Shown: positions 14,273-25,200, counted from the first letter of the stretch. The stretch: 54,088 bases of DNA from Minisyncoccota bacterium (GCA_018062505.1 JAGOSA010000001.1:35434-89521); one strand, 5' to 3'. Numbers and translations are program-made. The notes: a model not told the origin generated them from the sequence alone.

Positions 14273-17200
14273 TTATTCTTGCGCATATTCACCCGCCGTC
14301 GCATACTCATTTTCTGACACAACAGCTTCTTTTTGCTGAAGCAGTCTTTCCATTTCCCTATTGAATTTATTGAGCAATATCTGCGACTTGTGCGTAATCA
14401 TTTCTTCAGACGCACCTTGAACAACATAGTAGCCATCGCGCACTTCTCCTCCGCGATCAAATAGAGAATCTTGCGGACGGCCATCCATAATACCGCCATA
14501 GTTTTCATGCTTCATGACATCGAGGACAGCTTTGGCATTGACCGAACTATTGTTCGTGCCTTGCGGTCCTTTGAGGAAAATGTTGTTGGTGCGTGCGAGT
14601 GCGTTTACAAAACTTGGTTGTTGAGCTTCAAAAAGCGCTGACTCGGAAATAGTAATAGAATTCTTGAAGTCAGCAGACGCCAGCTCTTCTTCGCTTATCA
14701 ATTTTTTGTTGCGCATGATATCGATATTCTCTCCAGTATCGACATACTCGCCTTTTTTATCGACAAAGCCTCCACTAAATTCACTTTCGACAAATGAAGC
14801 ATTATGCTGGCTGACAGCATCCATCATTCCCCTCTTGAGCTTAGCCCACTCAAAAACAATTTCTTTTTCTTTTGAGGAATCGAATCTATCTTTTATCGCG
14901 CCAGTAGTGATGAGCATATCTTCAAATGCCTCGGCAGAATCCGGTACTTCCGCAAATTGAACATGGTTCGGGAGATATTTCTCTGAAACCTGTATTGCTA
15001 CGCCTGCATGGTGCGCAGTTAAAATAGCTTTTTCAAATTGCTCAATCGAATCTGTTGCCATGCCTTTTATCTCGCAGCGGACGCCACCTTGCCGAGTGTC
15101 GCTGAAATGATCAAGCTGCTTTTGGTGGATGATTTTTGTTGCGCGGATATTTTTTCCTGCTTCTACACCGGAAAGCTGCGCCATTGTCATAGTGTTGTTG
15201 AGAAATTGCATGTTTTCATCTACTCTAAGGCCACTATCGCCGCCGAGGCTCAAATGGTAGCCGCGAGGGGCATTTTCGTACTTTGTAAAATTGAGATCAA
15301 AAAGTCCCGCTTCCTGCATCAGCCTCACTTCTGCCATGACCATATAGGGATTATATGTTGGCTTTGGCGCAAATTCGTGGACGCCACCCAGACCCCTGCC
15401 GATATTTGCGGCTTTACTAATGAGCTCACTATCTTTTTTGTATCCAAATGCGCTTTCCTTGTTATATTCATCGACAATAGATTGGGTAGCTTCGTACTCT
15501 ATTCCCATAGAGACATGGGCGCCGTCTGGTATACAAGTCGGATCATACTTATCGAGAACATTTCCGATTCTTTCAAGCTCGCGCGCTAGCGCTTCCGGAT
15601 TACCAAGTCCTTTTGCTGCAACTGCCAATGTAATAAGGTTTTTTCCTTTATTTCCGTATTTTGATTCGAAAACTTCGAGGCTTTCTTGGATTTGCGGCGG
15701 CAAATGTTCTTTTTCGTTTTCAACCATAAATGAATCTTCTATATTCTTCAGCCGTCCCAGTTTTATTTCCTTATTTTCTAGACTGTCTTGAGCCCTAATA
15801 TCTTCAGCCGCTGAATCAAGAATAATCGAGTGCGCATTTTTACCATTATACTTTTCCCTGATAGACGGGAAATTCGTCATGATTTTTTCAATATGCTCAA
15901 AATTCAAGCCTTTGGCCCTCCTCTTGAATTCGATAAATACTTTTTCCTGCATCTCAGGGCTATTAAGTTCTTCTTCCTTAATATCGAAAGTCTTCAAAAC
16001 ATGATCAAACGAGAAAGGAGATTCTCGGGCTGAAATGGTCGGCAACGCCAACAGCATTTTCTCGCGGACAACTTCATATGGAACAGAAAACTTTTCAGCC
16101 AAATTACAAACTTCTTCTGTTGTAATATTTCCATTTCCGATAGCATGAGCCATTCTGCCAATTCCTTCCGTGGCAACCTCTTGCATTTCTGGCCCTGCTA
16201 ATTTCTCACGCGGAATATCCAAATATCCAAGAGTCCACACTATCGAATGTGGATATGATGTCGCGATGAATTTTTTCAATCCCACCAAAGCCTGCTCCTG
16301 AAATTCAGGAGTGTGCTTTTCTTCATCTGTTATGCCAAAGCCTGCAAAAACATCTTGTAGCTCATAGAAATTACCTTCCTCTAGAAAGATTTTCTTGCCT
16401 ATTTCTTTTATTTCCGCTTTTGTCGATTCTTCAATTGGTGCGGCATTCAAGTCACGGAGTATTGACCTAGTATCGTTTTTATAACTATCAAAAATACCTG
16501 AATTGGCAATTGTCTCTGCGTCAACATTCTTGAACTTATCTAAATATCCAAGCACGGTTCTCTGCTGTCCGCTTTCCAGAAGTGCTTTCATTAGGTCCTC
16601 GCTGAATTCGCCTTTCTCTGCCCGCTTGAGCGCACTTTCGACTACATAGTGCCTTGAAGCAGTACTGTCGGCAGTAGCGACCAAGGCAGCAAGAACAGGC
16701 TCGCTGATTCCTTCATTCCTGTTGTATATAAAATGAGAATCATGTGAAGCTAAAATGTCGTCCGCAAATCGAGTCTTCATCAAAGATTCAAGCTCAGATT
16801 TTGTAATATTTTTCCCAATGTAATGACCTAGCCTTTCGAGGTCTATTTTTTCATCTCTGAATTTGTCTTTGCCAAAATAATTCTCTAAGTGCGACAAATC
16901 TTTTTGGGCAAGGAGCGCAATCTTTGACTTGCGGATAAAATCTGAATCTCGGCTCGGACGATCTTTCTCATCAAGGCTGTAGTCTTCACTAGCCGCGATC
17001 GCTGCCTTCATTTTTTCTTTGAGCATTTCTTTTGCCTGCCTTATTGTGTCGACTGGATTTTCAACAAGAATTCCCTCGGCAACCTGCTTCCTTTTTACAT
17101 CTTCATATAGTTCCTGCATCGCCTCGGCTTCATACGCTTCAAGCGGAACATCATCCGGCTTCAGGATTTGCAGCATTGGCAAAATTTCTTTTTCATACTT

Positions 17201-17563
17201 TTCTTGGGCAGGATCTGTTTCAGGCTGATCGGACTCGGCAACAGCTTCCCCTTCATGAAAGGCTCCAAGCTGTGTGAGCGCTTCACTTTTTAGATTTTCG
17301 GCTTCTGTATTTATCTCGCGTAACTGATGGTCAAAATTGATTTCGCTCTTGGCTGCAAAAACATCAGCTTGGTTTTGCAAATTGAACTGCGCGGCAATTG
17401 CGTCGATCTTGGAGTCATCTGCGCGGAAAGCTGCTATTTTTTCTTCGATTTCGTTTCCAATTTTTTGGCGAAGCTGTTCGAGCTGTACTTCTGTTGCTGG
17501 AACTTGCTCAAGCGAAATTAAAGCAGCATTTTCCTCTTCGATTGGTGGTTTTTCATTTTCCAT
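14273..17563 (-). CDS. large (1096 aa) protein with GS-like amidoligase-type motif set and internal repeats
   Basis: Acidic coiled-coil N-terminus. Three repeats contain ..EE(K/L)..PE(F/M)QE.. (aa ~406-550). Ordered motifs GIEYE, GGVHEFAPKP, GYHLSLGG and VRCEIKGMATDSIE (aa ~683-850) resemble the Amidoligase_2/GS fold. Confidence 0.45.
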   Translation of the reverse strand: MENEKPPIEEENAALISLEQVPATEVQLEQLRQKIGNEIEEKIAAFRADDSKIDAIAAQFNLQNQADVFAAKSEINFDHQLREINTEAENLKSEALTQLGAFHEGEAVAESDQPETDPAQEKYEKEILPMLQILKPDDVPLEAYEAEAMQELYEDVKRKQVAEGILVENPVDTIRQAKEMLKEKMKAAIAASEDYSLDEKDRPSRDSDFIRKSKIALLAQKDLSHLENYFGKDKFRDEKIDLERLGHYIGKNITKSELESLMKTRFADDILASHDSHFIYNRNEGISEPVLAALVATADSTASRHYVVESALKRAEKGEFSEDLMKALLESGQQRTVLGYLDKFKNVDAETIANSGIFDSYKNDTRSILRDLNAAPIEESTKAEIKEIGKKIFLEEGNFYELQDVFAGFGITDEEKHTPEFQEQALVGLKKFIATSYPHSIVWTLGYLDIPREKLAGPEMQEVATEGIGRMAHAIGNGNITTEEVCNLAEKFSVPYEVVREKMLLALPTISARESPFSFDHVLKTFDIKEEELNSPEMQEKVFIEFKRRAKGLNFEHIEKIMTNFPSIREKYNGKNAHSIILDSAAEDIRAQDSLENKEIKLGRLKNIEDSFMVENEKEHLPPQIQESLEVFESKYGNKGKNLITLAVAAKGLGNPEALARELERIGNVLDKYDPTCIPDGAHVSMGIEYEATQSIVDEYNKESAFGYKKDSELISKAANIGRGLGGVHEFAPKPTYNPYMVMAEVRLMQEAGLFDLNFTKYENAPRGYHLSLGGDSGLRVDENMQFLNNTMTMAQLSGVEAGKNIRATKIIHQKQLDHFSDTRQGGVRCEIKGMATDSIEQFEKAILTAHHAGVAIQVSEKYLPNHVQFAEVPDSAEAFEDMLITTGAIKDRFDSSKEKEIVFEWAKLKRGMMDAVSQHNASFVESEFSGGFVDKKGEYVDTGENIDIMRNKKLISEEELASADFKNSITISESALFEAQQPSFVNALARTNNIFLKGPQGTNNSSVNAKAVLDVMKHENYGGIMDGRPQDSLFDRGGEVRDGYYVVQGASEEMITHKSQILLNKFNREMERLLQQKEAVVSENEYATAGEYAQE

Positions 17564-17564
17564 A

Positions 17565-17735
17565 TTACATCATCGACTTCAATCCGCGCTTAACTTCGTC
17601 GATCTTTTTTTCTTTGAGTTTGAGGCTGAAGAGCTGCATGAGATGCATTTTTTTCTGCCGAAGAACATCAAGTTTTTGATTGAAAGTTTCTTGCAGTGCA
17701 GCGAGCTTTTCGGCTGTTTTCCCTTCGGCGTTCAT
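17565..17735 (-). CDS. small coiled-coil protein (56 aa), upstream partner of the 1096-aa gene
   Basis: Below the ORF-track cutoff. Translation is MNAEGKTAEKLAALQETFNQKLDVLRQKKMHLMQLFSLKLKEKKIDEVKRGLKSMM. Its stop lies 1 nt before the ATG of the large gene. Confidence 0.4.
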   Translation of the reverse strand: MNAEGKTAEKLAALQETFNQKLDVLRQKKMHLMQLFSLKLKEKKIDEVKRGLKSMM

Positions 17736-17868
17736 AGACAAATAGTACCATTCAGGACGTGCGGCTACCAGCAGATATTTTTGGAGTTAAAATCTTTCTC
17801 AATTATTCCTAAAGACCAATCCACAACCTGAGTCCCGCAATTTTATATGGAGCATATAATGCCTGCAT

Positions 17869-18537
17869 ATGAGAGTATTAATTATTGAAGATGACCCAGA
17901 AATATTAGTAATGCTGACGTCGTACTTGGAAACTGCCTGCTTTGCGGTTGATGCTTGTAGCGACGGCGCGCAAGGCTCGTTCTTGGCGAGGACCAACGAC
18001 TACGACATCGTCATTTTGGACTACATGCTACCAAACAAAGACGGCTTGCGCATTTGCCACGAAGTTCGCGAAGCTGGCAAAACAATGCCTCTTCTCATGG
18101 TTACGGTGCGAAGCCAGATTTCGGATAAAGTCGAACTTTTGAATAAAGGCGTTGATGACTACGTAACGAAGCCATTTTCATTCGAAGAAATTATTGCGCG
18201 TATTAATGCTTTGCTTCGGAGGCCAAAAGCGATTGATGCTCCTGTAATGAATGTCGGCAGCATTACGATCGACGCCGCGAAGCAGCGTGTCCTCAAGGGC
18301 AATAAAGAAATTTACCTGACGCGCAAAGAGTATTCCCTGCTTGAGTATTTGGCACGCAATGAAGGGCATGTTGTTTCGAGAGGGACAATAATGGAACATG
18401 TCTGGAATATGGAAAGCGATCCGTTTTCAAATACAATCGAGGCGCACATCTTCAATCTGCGCAAAAAGATTCGCCGCGGCAAGAATGATTTGATACGCAC
18501 TGTCCCAGGCCGCGGCTATATGCTGAGCGGGAAATAG
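17869..18537 (+). CDS. OmpR/PhoB-family response regulator
   Basis: REC motifs are IIEDD, VILDYMLPNKDG and VTKPF. The C-terminal winged helix reads LTRKEYSLLEYL...RTVPGRGYML. Confidence 0.9.
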   Translation: MRVLIIEDDPEILVMLTSYLETACFAVDACSDGAQGSFLARTNDYDIVILDYMLPNKDGLRICHEVREAGKTMPLLMVTVRSQISDKVELLNKGVDDYVTKPFSFEEIIARINALLRRPKAIDAPVMNVGSITIDAAKQRVLKGNKEIYLTRKEYSLLEYLARNEGHVVSRGTIMEHVWNMESDPFSNTIEAHIFNLRKKIRRGKNDLIRTVPGRGYMLSGK

Positions 18538-18788
18538 TGATGGGATTAGCACGTGAAGTTCACTTTATAAAAAATTTATCAGGGCTTCATGTCGCCCTGC
18601 CATACTGTTTGGGCAATCCAGACGGTCGAATGGATTTGCTTTATCAAAAGTTATATCATATCCATATGTCACATATCATCGAAAAAATCCTCAATGACGA
18701 AACCATGCGCACCAAATCCGACGTCACCAAACTATCGCTGAATGAGGGAGAGTTTGAGCCGTGGTGGAGCTAACTAAATAAAGAAATA

Positions 18789-20273
18789 ATGAAAACTCTT
18801 CTCATGAGCACAAAATCAATGATCACTGCCTGCCAAAAGTGGTACATGAAGAGTGCTCATTATTTCTATCTACGTTTTCTGAAACCAAAGTCTATAAATG
18901 AGGATGAAAAAAGAAGTGAAGGTATTCTTACTCTTCTATTATTTATTGCCTTAATAATCAATGCATTTTTCGAAATAGTTCTTATTTTCCTGCACCTCAG
19001 CGTTAATAACTATGAAGGAATACCGTTAACTGTATTCTCATTAATATTTGCGTTCTTTATTTTACTATTTATAGCCGCCAGAAAGGGTTACCATTTATTT
19101 GCTGGCTATTGTTTTGTATTTCTAATTCTTGCTTCAACAATTTACGGCAGTTATATGTGGGGAGCAAGTTTGCCAATGGGACTACTTTCATATGGACTAG
19201 TGGTGACTATTGCGAGCATAGTAATTAATAGTAGATTTGGTTTTATTATTGCCCTGATAGCTTGTTCGTCAATTGTAATAACTGGACTACATGAGCACTC
19301 TAGTCAAATTATTCCAGAATGGAAACAGGCGGCTATAGAAAAACGCGACGTTATAAGCTACGGCATCATGATCGGTCTCACCGCCCTACTCTCTCGGCTA
19401 TCAAACAAAGAAATGGAAAAATCACTTAAACGCGCGAGGACATCCGAGCAGGCACTCAAAGAAGAGCGAGACAATCTCGAAATCACGGTTCAAGAAAGGA
19501 CTAGGGCGCTCCGCGAATCAGAGCGGGAGCGCATGCGCGAACTGTATCGCTTTGCTGAATTCGGCAAGCTCTCCGGCGGCATCTTCCATGACTTGCTCAA
19601 CCCGCTGACTGCCGTTTCGCTCTCTGTCGAAAAACTTTCAGCAGACAGCAGCATCAAAACCAGCAGCAGCGAAGAAGCTGTTCGTTCGCTCAAGACCGCA
19701 GTTAGCGCAACCAAGAAAATGGAGCAATTTATGGCCACTGTAAAAAAGCAGATTCAGTCCAACGACATGCGCGGCGCATTCTCTCTCAATGAAGAAATCG
19801 AAGACGCAATCGAACTCATCAAGCACAAGGCCATAAAAACCAATACCTCGATCATTTTTGATTCCGCCGCTTCGCACCAAACATACGGCAATCCCCTCAA
19901 ATTAAACCAAGTCATCACAAATCTTCTTATTAATGCAATCGACGCAGGAGCCACAGAAATTATTGTTAGCCTTTCTGCTTCGCCACAACTAGAAAATAAA
20001 ATCGTCTGCATAATCAAAGACAATGGCAGCGGCATGCCGCCCGACATCTCCAAAAACATTTTCACGCCATTCTATACAACAAAAGAAAAAGGCATTGGCC
20101 TTGGGCTTTCAACAACGAAGGACATTGTCGAAGAGCACTTTGGCGGATCGATTGACTGCCAAAGCTCTACAGGGAACCAAAACGACAGCGGCACCAGTTT
20201 TACTATTATTCTTTCATCACATGATTTCAATTCTCCATCCGTTAACAGAATCGAAGAAACAGAAAATAGCTGA
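18789..20273 (+). CDS. membrane sensor histidine kinase
   Basis: Multiple N-terminal TM helices. The H-box is FHDLLNPLTAV. The ATPase boxes are NLLINAIDAG, DNGSGMPPD and GIGLGLSTTKDIV. Confidence 0.85.
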   Translation: MKTLLMSTKSMITACQKWYMKSAHYFYLRFLKPKSINEDEKRSEGILTLLLFIALIINAFFEIVLIFLHLSVNNYEGIPLTVFSLIFAFFILLFIAARKGYHLFAGYCFVFLILASTIYGSYMWGASLPMGLLSYGLVVTIASIVINSRFGFIIALIACSSIVITGLHEHSSQIIPEWKQAAIEKRDVISYGIMIGLTALLSRLSNKEMEKSLKRARTSEQALKEERDNLEITVQERTRALRESERERMRELYRFAEFGKLSGGIFHDLLNPLTAVSLSVEKLSADSSIKTSSSEEAVRSLKTAVSATKKMEQFMATVKKQIQSNDMRGAFSLNEEIEDAIELIKHKAIKTNTSIIFDSAASHQTYGNPLKLNQVITNLLINAIDAGATEIIVSLSASPQLENKIVCIIKDNGSGMPPDISKNIFTPFYTTKEKGIGLGLSTTKDIVEEHFGGSIDCQSSTGNQNDSGTSFTIILSSHDFNSPSVNRIEETENS

Positions 20274-22212
20274 GAGCATTAAAAACGCTTGGCTTTTCTT
20301 GGTGGAAAATCAGCAACGAAATGGCAAGTTTGCAGGTATTGCCTTTGCCGACTCAGTCGCTGGAGCACCGGCAAAAGAAGCTTCATCGCCAACTCCTTTT
20401 ACGACTTCTGTTATTCTGAGCTCACTCAGAAACCTCAATGGCTCTGACTTTGTAGACCAAGAGCAGCTGGCAGCGCTCGCGAGCAAAGCCGCAAACTATC
20501 TCCTCAGCCAAAAAGACGAAACGCTTTTTGCGTGGAACTACTGGGAAACAGGCAATGACAAAAGGCGTACCCTGCCTCCAGATATGGACGACACAGCACT
20601 TGCCGTTGCATCGCTGCAGCTCTGGCAGCCAGAATCCTTGGACGGAGAGGCTTTGGCAAACCTAGTCCATGCATTGCTTATGGCCGAAATATCGGCCGGC
20701 GGCCCGTACAATACTTGGCTGAACGATTTCAAAAAACACGACGTATGGGCAGACTGCGACATTGGCGTCAATGCAAACATTGCTTTTATGTCTTCACTAC
20801 TCGGCATTACGCTCAAGAATCTCAATCAATACTTTGAGGAAGCAGTACTGTCAGGCAAGCTTTCATCGGCATATTACCTCTCTCCACTCGTGCTCTTATA
20901 TTTTATTTCTCGCGGCTACGGTGGCGACAAAAAGGAACTGTTCGTTGAAGCAATTGAAAAAGAACGAATAGCAGACGGCACGTGGGGCTCTCCCATGCAT
21001 ACTGCCCTCGCGCTTTCTTCCCTTCACAATTTTGGGAAAAATATTACGGGCGAAAATGAAGCGATCGATTATATCGTCGAGGCGCAGCAGAGCGGCCGCT
21101 GGGAAAAAGAAATATTCTACCTCGAGCGCAGAAATCCAGAAGATCGCTGGTATCACGGATCAGAAAGTATATCGACTGCACTTTGCATTGAAGCTTTATC
21201 TCTATTGTTAGTGTCGGCGAAAAAAGAAATTAAGCCGAGCCAGACTGCCCAAACAGAACCAAAACATTTTCAAGCTGAGGCAGACAGCATCGCCGAAGAA
21301 TTCGCTAATCGTGCTTCGGCTATTTCAGAAGAATATAAAATACTCGCAGAAAAATGGATCGCCAAGATGTTTGCGCATGACTGGATTCGAGACAGCATTC
21401 TGTTTCCTTTTTTCTTGAACCACAACCTTATCTCTACGCAAGCAAATACAGAGAAAGAAGTAGCACAGCAAGAGCTATCCGCTCTGTCTTTAGCAAATCT
21501 CTTCGGCTGGATCGGCTACACAATCATGGACGATATCATGGACGAGGATGCGCCAGCTAGCATGATCCCCTTCGCAAACTTTTGCCTGCGCGAAATGAAT
21601 ATGCTGTTTGCAGAAAACCTTAGTGCCGAAAACATGCGAACTGCAAAAGAGCTGCTGAACGAAATAGACAAAGCATACAGTTTTGAGCAATCCCAAAGAG
21701 CCAAGGCAACCAAAGACGCTTTCCGAATCCCATTCCCACCGCAAGATAATCAACAAACAGAATTTCAACTGATGCCTAAATCCATCGGTATAGCTATAGG
21801 TGGTCTTAGCCTTTTTAACAATAGCGAAGCTTTAATCAACTTCTTCAGGTACTTTCTGCGTGCGAAGCAAAATAGCGATGACGCCGAAGACCTGATAGAC
21901 GATCTCGCACGCGGCCATATTACGCCAGCAGCTTCTCGGGTACTAGCCGCCTTCCGCGCAAAATACCCACGCCGAGAAATGTATTCAATTTCAGTAGATA
22001 GAGATTTGCTGCTGTCGATTTTTTGGAATGAAACCTACCCGCTGCTTTTCCAAGAAATGAACGAGGACCTCAGCAAAGCAGCAATAGCCATCGCTGAACT
22101 ACCACTTCGTGAAGACAACTACTTCATGAGGCTAACAAATAAACTACAAACAGCAATCCGCCGAACAAATGATGAACGGCGGAAAGTGCAAGATTTTTTG
22201 AGCGAGTACTAA
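20221..22212 (+). CDS. fusion of prenyltransferase/terpene-cyclase-like alpha-alpha barrel (DxDDTA) with class I isoprenoid-synthase-like domain (DDxxD)
   Basis: LPPDMDDTALAV (20581-20592 encodes DMDD), plus QW-like GTWGS and QSGRWEKE. The C-terminal half has YTIMDDIMDED (21529-21549) and RAKQNSDDAEDLIDD (21871-21903). The start is uncertain: ATG 20221 overlaps the kinase gene by 53 nt. Confidence 0.5.
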   Translation: MISILHPLTESKKQKIAESIKNAWLFLVENQQRNGKFAGIAFADSVAGAPAKEASSPTPFTTSVILSSLRNLNGSDFVDQEQLAALASKAANYLLSQKDETLFAWNYWETGNDKRRTLPPDMDDTALAVASLQLWQPESLDGEALANLVHALLMAEISAGGPYNTWLNDFKKHDVWADCDIGVNANIAFMSSLLGITLKNLNQYFEEAVLSGKLSSAYYLSPLVLLYFISRGYGGDKKELFVEAIEKERIADGTWGSPMHTALALSSLHNFGKNITGENEAIDYIVEAQQSGRWEKEIFYLERRNPEDRWYHGSESISTALCIEALSLLLVSAKKEIKPSQTAQTEPKHFQAEADSIAEEFANRASAISEEYKILAEKWIAKMFAHDWIRDSILFPFFLNHNLISTQANTEKEVAQQELSALSLANLFGWIGYTIMDDIMDEDAPASMIPFANFCLREMNMLFAENLSAENMRTAKELLNEIDKAYSFEQSQRAKATKDAFRIPFPPQDNQQTEFQLMPKSIGIAIGGLSLFNNSEALINFFRYFLRAKQNSDDAEDLIDDLARGHITPAASRVLAAFRAKYPRREMYSISVDRDLLLSIFWNETYPLLFQEMNEDLSKAAIAIAELPLREDNYFMRLTNKLQTAIRRTNDERRKVQDFLSEY

Positions 22213-22231
22213 CTGAGCAGATGCGCTGTGG

Positions 22232-25200
22232 CTACGGGTTGAGCAAAATGTACTTCTTCGTACTTGGCCCGAAAATACCTGTTCCCTTCTTTAAACCCAC
22301 AGGAATAAGGATTTCTTTAGCGTGGGCATCTTGGAATTTGACGAGGGCAGCCTTGGTTGCTGGACCAAAGTAGTTAGTTTCCTTGCCTACAGAACCAGCA
22401 CCTGTTTTTGCTACGGCAAAACCGTGTGCATTCAAGTATTTCTGAAGCTCAAGAATAGACTTAGCTGTCATGCCTGTTTTGAGGTTTCTGGTTTCGGCAA
22501 AGAGAGCTGGGTATGTTTTGGAAAAATCTGCCGCTCCACTTGTTGGAGTTTCTGGATCTGGATTTGTAACCGGCGGAACAATTGGTGGAACAATAGGCGG
22601 CACGATTGGAGCATTTGGATCTATCGGAATAGGAATTGGAATAGAATAACCCCAACTCCCCCCTCCGCCTCCACCACCACCTTCTTCAACAGGAATCGTC
22701 TCGAGCAAACCGGTTGTCGTATCCAAAATCGAAACCAAATTGTCTTGGAAACGCGTAACGTAAATGTCAGTACCGTATACACCCATGCCAGCCGGAGAGT
22801 GGCCGACGACGACAGTGCTATCGACAGTATTGTCGCTCGAATCAATTATCGAAATAGTGCCATCATCAAAATTTTCAATGTAGATTTTTGTGCCGACGAC
22901 AGCCATACCACGCGGACCATTGCCGACATCGATTGTCTCAGTGACTCTGTTTGTCGCCGTATCAATAACAGAAACATTGTGCGATCTGTAGTTTGCCACA
23001 TAAACAATATCGTCAAGTACGATGACGCCACGAGGACCTTCTGAATCTCCGGGCAATAAAATCGTATCGGAAATTGTATTATCTGTAGAATCAATAACCG
23101 TGATCGAGTTGCCGCCTGAATAATTTTGATCGCCGAAGTTCGCGACATAGAGATCAGTGCCGTGCGCCTTAATACCACGAGGATATGCGCCGACAGGAAT
23201 AGTTGCAGTGACTGTATTATTTGTTGCATCAATAACTGAGACAGTATTCGATGCGCCGTTTGTGACATAGACTTCTGTGCCGATAGTCGTCACGTAGTAC
23301 GGACGCAAGCCAACAGAAACAGTCGTCGCAACAGTGTTGGTACTTGTATCAATTACCGAAACAGTATCAGAACCGGTGTTTGCAACGTACATATATATTG
23401 TTCCGGAAACAGTTGCAGCAGAAAGGCCATACGGTTCGTCGCCGACATCAATAGTGTCGATTACGGTATTATCTGAAAGACGAAGAACCGAAACAGTGCC
23501 GTCGCCTTGGTTGGCAATATATGAATAGTCGACAGCATCAACGGTTACTGCCGCAGACGCCTGGTATGGATTGTCCCCTACTTCAATTTCTACATAGCCG
23601 CCGATAACAATATTTTTTGAGTCGCCGATATTTCTTGTGATAAATGAATTCTCAGCGACAAATGAACCTTGTGATGAAGGAATGTCGTACGCAGTTTGTG
23701 TAATCGTATTTGCAAAATCAGTAACCGATGCGCTTGTAACCGACGAAACAGCAAGGTCCGGTGTGCGATGCCCGGAGCCAACTGTGTACGTTCCCGAAAG
23801 CGTTGAGCCGGAAACGTTTGAAAGTGTCGCTGAACCGCCGGAATTGAGCGCGACCGTCATTGTTGAGCCGGGTTTTATATTTCGATCAAACGTTGCGGTG
23901 ATGTTTATTGTTTGGCCTGTAGTGTATGTACCGGAGGCTGCAGTAGAAGTAAAAGATAGAAGTGCTGGAATCGCATGCGGGAGCTGCGAACTATCTAAGA
24001 CAAGCATTCTGTTATCGATCGAAATGTATACCTTGTCCCCAACAACTGCGGCATAGCCTGCACTCACACTATCTGTGTCAACAGAAGCAACAATAGCATC
24101 AGTCTCAGTATCGACAATATCGACAGCCCCGCCAGTGCTTCGCATAACGTAGAGGTATTTACCTAAAACAACCATATGAACTGGCTCATTTGAACTTGGT
24201 ATTGTTTCGACAACGGTATCTGTGGATGTATCGATAGCACTTATTGTTCCCGAGCTAGCTCCTGTCGAATAGACTTTTGTGCCGACTGCCACGATGGCAT
24301 ATGGGGTTGCTCCAACTGGTATAGTGTCTATCTCCGTATTGGTAACTGTATCAATAACGGTCACTTGATTTTGATTGTTATTGTTAGCAACGTACAATTT
24401 TGAACCGACAGCAACACTGTAATAAGGAGAACCAATCGACGTAATTGTATCCACAACAGTTTCGCTAATCGTATCGATGACACTAATAGTATGTGAGCTA
24501 TTGTTATTGACGTAGAGCATCGTGCCAACCTGAGTAAATCCAGCGGGGTTATTCCCGACTGTTAGTGTTGTCGTAACTGTGTCAGAATTTGTATCAATAA
24601 TAGAAACGGTATTTTCGCCATAGTTACCAACATAGACCTTTTGTCCAACAACATGAATGAGCGATGGCGACACACCGACAGTGACTACTTCAACCTGTGC
24701 ATATGTATCAATGTCAAAAACTTCAATACTACCCTCCTCTACTACATACAGTTTTTTCTCGGCAATAATGAGATTGTATCCTGTACTTGCCAATGAAATT
24801 GTAGTGAGTACAGCGTCACTCGCAGTATCAATGACAGTAACCTTACCGTCAGAACTAGACTCATTAGCAGTTAAGACAAAAAGCTTGGTGCCGTAGCTTC
24901 TCGAAAAAGTTGGACTATAGCCAGCAGTCACCGGCACCGCATACTCAACTGGTAGTTCAACAATAGCCGCCTGTTCCTGCAATCCAATCAGTGATTTTAG
25001 TGTGGTTGCGCCTGGTGTGTATGAAAAAACAATAGCATCGCCGGGATCCAAAGCAACATTTGGCTGTACAGACAACGTCACGCCATTTATGGCAACACTT
25101 GAGACAGAAACATCTTCACCGTTTACGTTTATCGCAAAATCGCCAACACTCGGAACGGATGAAGTATCCAGATTGTGGCGATACTCAATGTATATTTTTT

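Follow-up and report, generated by a model that had tools for sequence, protein, structure and literature searches.

A gene at 20221..22212 on the plus strand of a 54,088-nt stretch of DNA from a Minisyncoccota bacterium (GCA_018062505.1 JAGOSA010000001.1:35434-89521; the whole stretch is hereafter the window) encodes a protein of 663 amino acids (aa) that combines two isoprenoid-related domains. We have little doubt that these are a class II terpene cyclase and a prenyltransferase resembling enzymes of the trans-IDS type (trans-isoprenyl diphosphate synthases). The gene belongs to a conserved cassette that also encodes an OmpR-type response regulator, a 35-aa peptide with a conserved tryptophan, and a membrane sensor histidine kinase. 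The best reading, to which we give a probability of about 0.6, is that the protein is a maturase of the ChrPC/PalQ/ComQ kind that would prenylate the tryptophan of a peptide and cyclize the attached chain, yielding a pheromone sensed by the kinase.

A family of two-domain enzymes

The reading frame of the gene is open from 20023 to 22212, and the ATG at 20221 gives 663 aa. Homologs begin at the equivalent position. The kinase open reading frame (ORF) upstream ends at 20273, which confirms the 53-nt overlap between the two genes described in an earlier interpretation of the same DNA without database searches (the sequence-only reading). In related loci, the enzyme start lies between -74 and +20 nt from the kinase stop, frequently as a 4-nt ATGA overlap, and tight coupling to the kinase gene is thus a trait of the family. 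The main features of the enzyme gene are as follows.

20221..22212, plus strand: cyclase-prenyltransferase fusion (P0001), 663 aa, from the AlphaFold2 model and homologs
20221..21231, plus strand: N-terminal domain, about residues 1-337, single-barrel class II terpene cyclase (TC-beta), predicted from profile searches of the Protein Data Bank (PDB) and Foldseek
20581..20595, plus strand: class II general-acid motif D121-M-D123-D124-T125, from conservation in 111 sequences and alignment of D123 to D333 of the drimenol synthase AsDMS
21262..22209, plus strand: C-terminal domain, residues 348-663, trans-IDS-like prenyltransferase (alpha fold), predicted from a domain-only AlphaFold2 model and Foldseek
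21529..21543, plus strand: first Asp-rich motif D437-D-I-M-D441, resembling the first motif rich in aspartate (FARM) of trans-IDS enzymes, with D437 and D441 invariant, at the C-terminus of a long modeled helix
21868..21903, plus strand: second motif Q550-N-S-D553-D554-A-E-D557-L-I-D-D561, resembling the second motif rich in aspartate (SARM) with a preceding Gln, from invariant residues

With a threshold of E ≤ 1e-3, a scan of 1.84 billion representative proteins recovered 1780 relatives; at E ≤ 1e-30, there were 676 clusters. Nearly all of the 150 best relatives listed are about 630-690 aa long and align over their full length; the family has a constant two-domain architecture. Every family member seen carries the annotation ‘hypothetical protein’, and a search for homologous proteins with a 111-sequence profile returned only the same family, again all ‘hypothetical’. 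The gene is single-copy in the 671-kb genome assembly (40 contigs, 79.5% complete).

Conservation was assessed in an alignment of 111 diverse representatives with 26-55% identity to the window protein. The segment LPPDMDDTALAV contains D121, D123, D124, and T125; the segment GYTIMDDIMDED contains D437 and D441; and the segment LRAKQNSDDAEDLIDDL contains Q550, D553, D554, D557, and D561. Nine residues are invariant (D121, D123, D437, D441, E489, Q550, D553, D557, and D561), and D124, T125, D554, and R457 are conserved in at least 90% of the representatives. The DxDDT motif and both Asp-rich motifs are therefore present as the sequence-only reading quoted them and conserved far beyond chance; poor conservation in homologs, which that reading had named as grounds for abandoning its idea, was not what the 111 representatives showed. 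The first Asp-rich motif is strictly conserved only as DxxxD because D438 varies. The proposed Q/W-type repeats stand in a weaker form: a QxxxGxF segment at residues 31-37 is nearly invariant, and HMMER aligns it to the QW segments of squalene-hopene cyclase at sub-threshold scores only.

The N-terminal cyclase domain

The AlphaFold2 model of the full-length protein (mean predicted local distance difference test, pLDDT, of 85.6) consists of two helical domains with a low-confidence linker at residues 337-347. In family profile searches against the PDB, the N-terminal 310 residues matched the cyclase domain of AsDMS (residues 257-524) with E = 1e-11 for a 12-sequence profile and E = 1e-16 for a 111-sequence profile. 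Weaker matches included squalene-hopene cyclase (E = 2.5e-4), the monodomain cyclase 8pak (4e-4), and AstC (6.5e-4), while MstE matched at E = 0.27. Foldseek likewise returned AsDMS (9mhs, E = 2e-9), 8pak/8paj (target-normalized TM-score, TMt, of 0.65-0.69), and squalene-hopene cyclase, AsDMS being the best match to the domain in both sequence and structure. The alpha/alpha-barrel (six-hairpin toroid) fold of a monodomain TC-beta cyclase is apparent in the model and in the Foldseek matches, and D123 aligns with D333 of AsDMS, which was mutated in the D333N crystal structures. Some homologs also pass the Pfam threshold for SQHop_cyclase_C. Judged by sequence and model, the domain is a single-barrel class II terpene cyclase, with a predicted cyclization reaction initiated by protonation.

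The window protein searched alone had no significant match in Pfam or NCBIfam, with only a sub-threshold hit to TED_complement, and a single-sequence phmmer search against the PDB found nothing. Of the two checks that the sequence-only reading had suggested for its domain assignment, the Pfam search gave no match above threshold and structure prediction recovered both folds. Its central claim, that one chain joins a DxDDT class II cyclase-type barrel to a domain of isoprenoid-synthase fold, is borne out by the AsDMS profile match (E = 1e-16) and by Foldseek matches to both domains.

The C-terminal prenyltransferase-like domain

The domain-only AlphaFold2 model of residues 348-663 has a pLDDT of 90.7 and a predicted TM-score (pTM) of 0.88. 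All of the best 50 Foldseek matches to this domain were trans-IDS enzymes or the tryptophan farnesyltransferase Ord1 (9v4i/9v4g, E = 1.4e-3), and none was a class I cyclase. TM-scores (TM) of 0.65-0.74 were obtained against hexaprenyl, heptaprenyl, octaprenyl, and geranylgeranyl diphosphate synthases, including the hexaprenyl synthase 3aqb (TM 0.70) and the octaprenyl synthase 5zlf (TMt 0.74). The Asp-rich motifs are located at helix ends in the model, which shows an alpha fold with two facing Asp motifs.

At the level of sequence, searches of the PDB and Pfam with the domain or its profile returned nothing significant (best match MoeN5, E = 1.4). The canonical polyprenyl synthase family PF00348 did not match the window protein even at E = 10, and the genome’s own polyprenyl synthase scores 103 bits. 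In an hhalign comparison of the domain profile with the latter, only the second Asp motif was aligned (SARM, AFQIQDDFYD), at 1% probability. A profile search of the protein library with the C-terminal domain returned only the same fused family, with no stand-alone ComQ- or PalQ-like proteins.

The domain also differs from elongating synthases in the residues that bind isopentenyl diphosphate (IPP). The bona fide synthases that were compared have three basic motifs: GGKRLRP, an RH or RRG that follows the first Asp motif, and GK..D..K.T beyond the second. Counterparts of all three (GGKRxR, RRG, and GK..D..K) are missing from the domain, in which R457 is the only conserved basic residue among the 111 sequences. 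With a trans-IDS fold and Asp motifs and without these basic motifs, the domain appears to be a transferase that still binds prenyl diphosphates but no longer IPP; from its sequence and predicted structure, it resembles neither an elongating synthase nor a class I cyclase.

Two identities were accordingly set aside. A canonical trans-IDS was rejected by the missing PF00348 match and IPP-binding motifs, and a class I terpene synthase or cyclase by the second motif, which has the form QxxDDAxDxxxD and is of the SARM type rather than NSE/DTE, as well as by the composition of the best 50 Foldseek matches. The same evidence does not support the class I terpene synthase side of the sequence-only reading, which had likened the two Asp-rich motifs to those of class I polyprenyl/terpene synthases.

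A conserved cassette with a regulator, a peptide, and a kinase

The enzyme gene is preceded on the same strand by three genes.

17869..18537, plus strand: OmpR-type response regulator, 222 aa, first gene of the cassette (Pfam Response_reg E = 9e-27, Trans_reg_C E = 1e-25)
18666..18773, plus strand: putative 35-aa precursor peptide MSHIIEKILNDETMRTKSDVTKLSLNEGEFEPWWS, ending EPWWS, the proposed substrate (inferred ATG start; leader motif and Trp)
18789..20273, plus strand: membrane sensor histidine kinase, 494 aa, with 5-6 transmembrane (TM) helices, short loops, a coiled coil, HisKA, and HATPase_c (Pfam HATPase_c E = 2e-23, weak HisKA)

By hydropathy, the kinase has five strong TM segments within residues 49-168, with hardly any extracellular loops. 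The peptide ORF, which the sequence-only reading had missed, sits in the 250-nt gap between the regulator and kinase genes.

Synteny was examined by clustering ORFs in 29 related loci from species-representative genomes, in which identity to the enzyme ranges from 22 to 83%. The gene order regulator, kinase, enzyme occurs in 25-26 of the 29 loci, with a regulator homolog upstream in 25 and a kinase homolog directly upstream of the enzyme in 26. Most of the loci are from Patescibacteria (Paceibacterota, Saccharibacteria, Nomura-, Buchanan-, Taylor-, and Roizmanbacteria). A few metagenome-assembled genomes bearing the cassette are labeled otherwise, namely as Gammaproteobacteria (L008, L009, and L018), Planctomycetales (L015), Dormiibacterota (L014), and Verrucomicrobiae (P0183).

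An ORF of 34-40 aa is found at the same place in every regulator-kinase-enzyme locus, and peptide homologs were identified in about 26 loci; the full order of regulator, peptide, kinase, and enzyme is seen in about 25 of the 29. The peptides are acidic and short, and share a leader motif, (I/L)(I/L)xKxL(T/N)DxxxR, and an invariant Trp located 1-8 residues from the end, usually within (E/A)PW. Between the window and its closest relative (L002, 83% identity), the three nucleotide differences in the peptide ORF are all synonymous. A hidden Markov model (HMM) built from 19 cassette peptides has a single match in the whole 671-kb genome. Beside the kinase or enzyme in the rearranged loci L007, L013, L016, L017, and L019, it also matches peptides that were not used for training (E = 1e-8 to 2e-3). 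The peptide gene of L019 is directly upstream of the enzyme with no kinase nearby. The conserved Trp peptide gene between regulator and kinase points to a peptide as the substrate of the enzyme, and the peptide of the cassette is probably that substrate.

Receiver domains are found in close association with the enzyme in some relatives. One protein of the representative library (P0072, 770 aa) has a receiver (Response_reg) domain fused to the C-terminus of the enzyme, and receiver-only proteins beside the enzyme replace the OmpR-type regulator in several rearranged Saccharimonadales loci (L007:5236-5667, L013:4277-4684, L016:7966-8415, and L017:7914-8312).

Isoprenoid supply

In 7 of the 29 loci, the direct neighbor of the enzyme gene encodes a PF00348 polyprenyl synthase (E = 1e-44 to 1e-50), convergent in some and co-directional in others. 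The genome of the window encodes a single polyprenyl synthase, on another contig, with 28-32% identity to those linked to the cassette.

L003:8006-9073, L004:8039-9136, L006:4384-5373, L014:7965-8858, L022:5680-6783, L023:7772-8935, and L027:7703-8830: enzyme-adjacent polyprenyl synthases (PF00348)
Contig C22:4906-5895 of the genome G000 (L001:1339-2328), minus strand: the only polyprenyl synthase of the genome, 330 aa, with GGKRLRP, DDIMD, and FQIQDD

In all of these synthases, both cassette-linked and the genome’s own, the residue five positions ahead of the first Asp motif is aromatic, which we take, by the established chain-length rule, to indicate a short-chain product (C15-C20). The genome’s own synthase gene is flanked by genes for an NHL-repeat protein and a glycoside hydrolase 3-like protein.

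The genes for making isoprenoid precursors were also sought, as the sequence-only reading had advised, and the outcome is the one that it had said would weaken its proposal: none was found in the 79.5%-complete assembly. The search for IspH, GHMP kinases (covering IspE and the mevalonate kinases), and the cis-prenyltransferase UppS was negative, as was that for Dxr, IspD, IspF, and IspG with queries from Escherichia coli; Dxs gave only transketolase-like matches to its C-terminal half. A control, HisS, was easily found in the same genome (E = 3e-79). The assembly shows no genes of the methylerythritol phosphate or mevalonate pathways that would provide IPP and dimethylallyl diphosphate (DMAPP), and no UppS for the cell-wall lipid carrier; supply of the precursors by a host would be a guess.

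Comparison with known systems

The P domain of ChrPC, which is trans-IDS-like, uses C10-C20 donors to prenylate a Trp inside a ribosomal peptide, and a monodomain class II C domain cyclizes the attached chain (PMC13290415). The characterized trans-IDS-like prenyltransferases (ComQ, PalQ, and the P domain of ChrPC) all act on Trp, the indole being recognized by a conserved Gln that closely precedes the second Asp motif and by the first Asp of that motif (PMC13290415). The C-terminal domain of the window protein has the same set of features, that is, a trans-IDS-like fold, the first Asp motif, and the Gln and Asp at the second motif. ChrPC and NctPC also share with the window protein the presence of prenyltransferase and monodomain class II cyclase folds in one chain, together with a Trp peptide, encoded here by a neighboring gene, and a chain that is cyclized, here by prediction. 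The likeness concerns the folds and the description in the review. In the window protein, the cyclase is N-terminal and, among solved structures, closest to AsDMS (E = 1e-16) rather than MstE (E = 0.27). In addition, the cassette here centers on a two-component system and occurs widely in Patescibacteria, and the activity is predicted from sequence and models. The primary report on ChrPC is that of Hubrich et al. (Chem 2024, doi 10.1016/j.chempr.2024.07.026).

The arrangement of genes recalls known peptide pheromone systems, among them ComQXPA of Bacillus subtilis. The kinase PalP, the precursor PalX with a conserved C-terminal Trp, and the enzyme PalQ form one cluster in Paenibacillus alvei (PMC10853753). 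As in PalPXQ and ComQXPA, genes for a membrane histidine kinase, a (predicted) Trp prenyltransferase of the trans-IDS-like kind, and a precursor whose conserved Trp is C-terminal or nearly so lie together in the window. All four kinds of genes in ComQXPA, i.e., enzyme, pre-peptide, membrane kinase, and regulator, are located within 17869-22212, and a precursor peptide with a conserved candidate acceptor Trp is adjacent both in the window (18666-18773) and in about 26 loci. PalQ has a first motif of the DxxxD form, and its motif residues D89/D93 and D200/D204 (PMC10853753) correspond to D90/D94 and D206/D210/D214 in the numbering of the C-terminal domain, with D90/D94 and D206/D210 spaced nearly as in PalQ. 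On the other hand, ComQ and PalQ have no cyclase domain, which is fused here; ComQ is without the second Asp motif, which is invariant here; and PalX carries a nitrile hydratase-like leader peptide (NHLP), whereas the leader of the cassette peptide is a 20-residue helix motif. The cassette loop is analogous, not homologous, to ComQXPA.

AsDMS (PDB 9mhs and 9m7d-f) and fungal haloacid dehalogenase (HAD)-like cyclases such as AstC likewise have a single-barrel TC-beta domain fused to a second, product-processing domain, with a general acid that aligns. In this type, however, the partner is an HAD phosphatase located N-terminal to the cyclase and the substrate is free farnesyl diphosphate (FPP), whereas the window protein has a C-terminal, alpha-fold, prenyltransferase-like partner; the acid motif is DxDTT in AsDMS and DxDDT here. 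Bifunctional class II/I diterpene synthases (abietadiene synthase; bacterial DCS, PMC12164552) also combine a DxDD site and an Asp-rich alpha-fold site in one chain. The likeness to plant and fungal class II plus class I enzymes, which the sequence-only reading had pointed to, does not extend further. In contrast to the alpha-beta-gamma diterpene synthases, the window protein has no gamma domain, has an alpha domain of the trans-IDS type with a SARM-type motif instead of NSE/DTE, and is arranged in the order beta-alpha, and no class I cyclase was among the best 50 structural matches.

Proposed function and alternatives

In the proposed mechanism, the C-terminal domain would use its Asp motifs and Mg2+ to bind a short (C15-C20) prenyl diphosphate, the donor being supplied by a dedicated polyprenyl synthase that is adjacent in many relatives and encoded elsewhere in this genome. 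The domain would then move the prenyl chain onto the conserved Trp near the C-terminus of the peptide, as do ComQ, PalQ, and the P domain of ChrPC. The N-terminal domain would protonate the terminal double bond of the attached chain via D123 and cyclize it, as the C domain of ChrPC does. The terpenoid-peptide would exit the cell and may be detected by the membrane-embedded sensor of the kinase, which would phosphorylate the regulator and so control the cassette and possibly other genes, in an autoinducer loop resembling ComQXPA. Whether the product is in fact the signal for the kinase of the cassette we consider an even question. The folds, motifs, conservation, and linkage of the genes are observed, and the substrate, the succession of reactions, the export, and the part played in signaling are proposed.

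Several observations weigh against this reading. The domain proposed to act on Trp has no sequence-level similarity to characterized enzymes in searches of Pfam, NCBIfam, and the PDB, and the Gln before its second Asp motif also occurs in ordinary trans-IDS enzymes (FQxxDD) and is thus non-discriminating. One locus (L028) has the enzyme without a detectable cassette. The cassette contains neither a leader peptidase nor a dedicated exporter, and an ABC exporter is nearby in only 4 of the 29 loci, 1-3 genes away. The OmpR-type regulator and HisKA kinase belong to other classes than ComA and ComP; ComA is a LuxR/NarL-type regulator. The genome’s polyprenyl synthase is without about 11 residues that hold the conserved, Lys-bearing GK..D after the second Asp motif, and the missing precursor genes described above leave IPP and DMAPP without an evident source. 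The ABC transporters near the cassette, listed here, may serve as peptide exporters.

L006:6366-7823, L021:9807-11561, L023:10403-11074, and L024:8902-10773: ABC transporter genes, that of L024 being of the exporter type (ABC_membrane and ABC_tran)

The enzyme could instead be a synthase of free terpenoids, with a drimenyl- or copalyl-type cyclization of a free prenyl diphosphate, an alpha domain that removes or transfers the diphosphate or acts earlier in elongation, and a cyclic terpenoid lipid with a level that the two-component system sets or senses. AsDMS, the closest solved relative of the N-terminal domain, indeed cyclizes free FPP and hands the product to a second domain, polyprenyl synthases are adjacent in seven loci, and a kinase sensor located within the membrane could sense a lipid. 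Nevertheless, this explanation leaves the conserved peptide and its invariant Trp unaccounted for, and the alpha domain cannot be an elongating synthase without IPP-binding motifs, nor does it resemble a class I cyclase or carry an NSE/DTE motif; in addition, no precursor pathway was found in the 79.5%-complete genome. We therefore consider a free terpenoid unlikely. The regulated isoprenoid product of the membrane or envelope suggested by the sequence-only reading has become the less likely interpretation in the light of the 35-aa Trp peptide, and a membrane-fluidity circuit with cyclic lipids, resembling that of DesK, was demoted because it too leaves the peptide unexplained.

The same chemistry could also yield an antimicrobial or host-directed effector belonging to the RiPPs (peptides made on the ribosome and modified after translation), with the kinase and regulator serving autoinduction or immunity as in lantibiotic circuits of the NisRK type. 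Bacteria of the Candidate Phyla Radiation (CPR) live on host cells, a lifestyle that would suit such an effector, and ABC exporters are nearby in four loci; moreover, ChrPC-type products have been described as RiPP natural products (PMC13290415). The 29 loci, however, contain no immunity gene and no consistently linked exporter or protease gene. The tight 1:1 linkage with a multi-pass kinase throughout the family fits pheromone systems such as ComQXPA and PalPXQ, and the acidic, short peptides are unlike typical membrane-active cationic peptides, so that an effector seems rather improbable. Finally, the protein might be a non-catalytic accessory, that is, a sensor subunit that binds an isoprenoid (e.g., polyprenyl phosphate) and modulates the kinase, its motifs being kept for ligand binding only. 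The conserved translational coupling to the kinase, the receiver domains fused to or beside the enzyme in some relatives, and the lack of a visible precursor pathway in the genome would agree with such a role. It is nonetheless very hard to reconcile with a class II general acid and five acidic residues of the alpha domain that are wholly invariant in 111 sequences at about 30% identity, as expected of active sites, and with the dedicated polyprenyl synthases encoded next to the enzyme.

Novelty and significance

A prenyltransferase fused to a cyclase and acting on a Trp peptide is an enzyme type familiar since 2024, and Trp-prenyl peptide systems linked to a kinase have been described in Bacillus and Paenibacillus. 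The novelty here lies in the combination of both systems in one cassette, an AsDMS-like cyclase N-terminal to the transferase, and the wide distribution in Patescibacteria. No literature on this enzyme family, or on a peptide pheromone system in CPR bacteria or Patescibacteria, was found in searchable papers. The genomes of these bacteria are tiny, and hosts are presumed to supply their lipids and most of their building blocks. The conserved cassette would offer a testable handle on how uncultured CPR epibionts communicate or sense hosts, it would add to the few enzymes that make polycyclic hybrids of terpenes and peptides, and the absent precursor pathway raises a separate metabolic question. 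It is conceivable, if improbable, that Trp peptides with a cyclized terpene constitute a dedicated means of cell-cell signaling across the CPR, with precursors possibly derived from the host, as the cells apparently cannot make IPP themselves, which would couple signaling to host attachment. In this scenario, the receiver domains fused to the enzyme in some lineages would hint at direct control of signal synthesis by phosphorylation.

Other features of the region

The interval between the regulator stop and the peptide start (18538-18665) is almost identical to that of L002 and contains a GC-rich hairpin at 18580-18599; it may be a regulatory region or an attenuator. Promoter and terminator scans of 17500-22400 performed no better than on shuffled sequence, and no convincing regulator-binding repeats, including direct repeats of the OmpR type in 18538-18665, were found in the intergenic regions. 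Upstream of the cassette, the minus strand encodes a 1096-aa protein (14273-17563) with no Pfam match at E ≤ 1e-3, which the sequence-only reading had labeled amidoligase-like.

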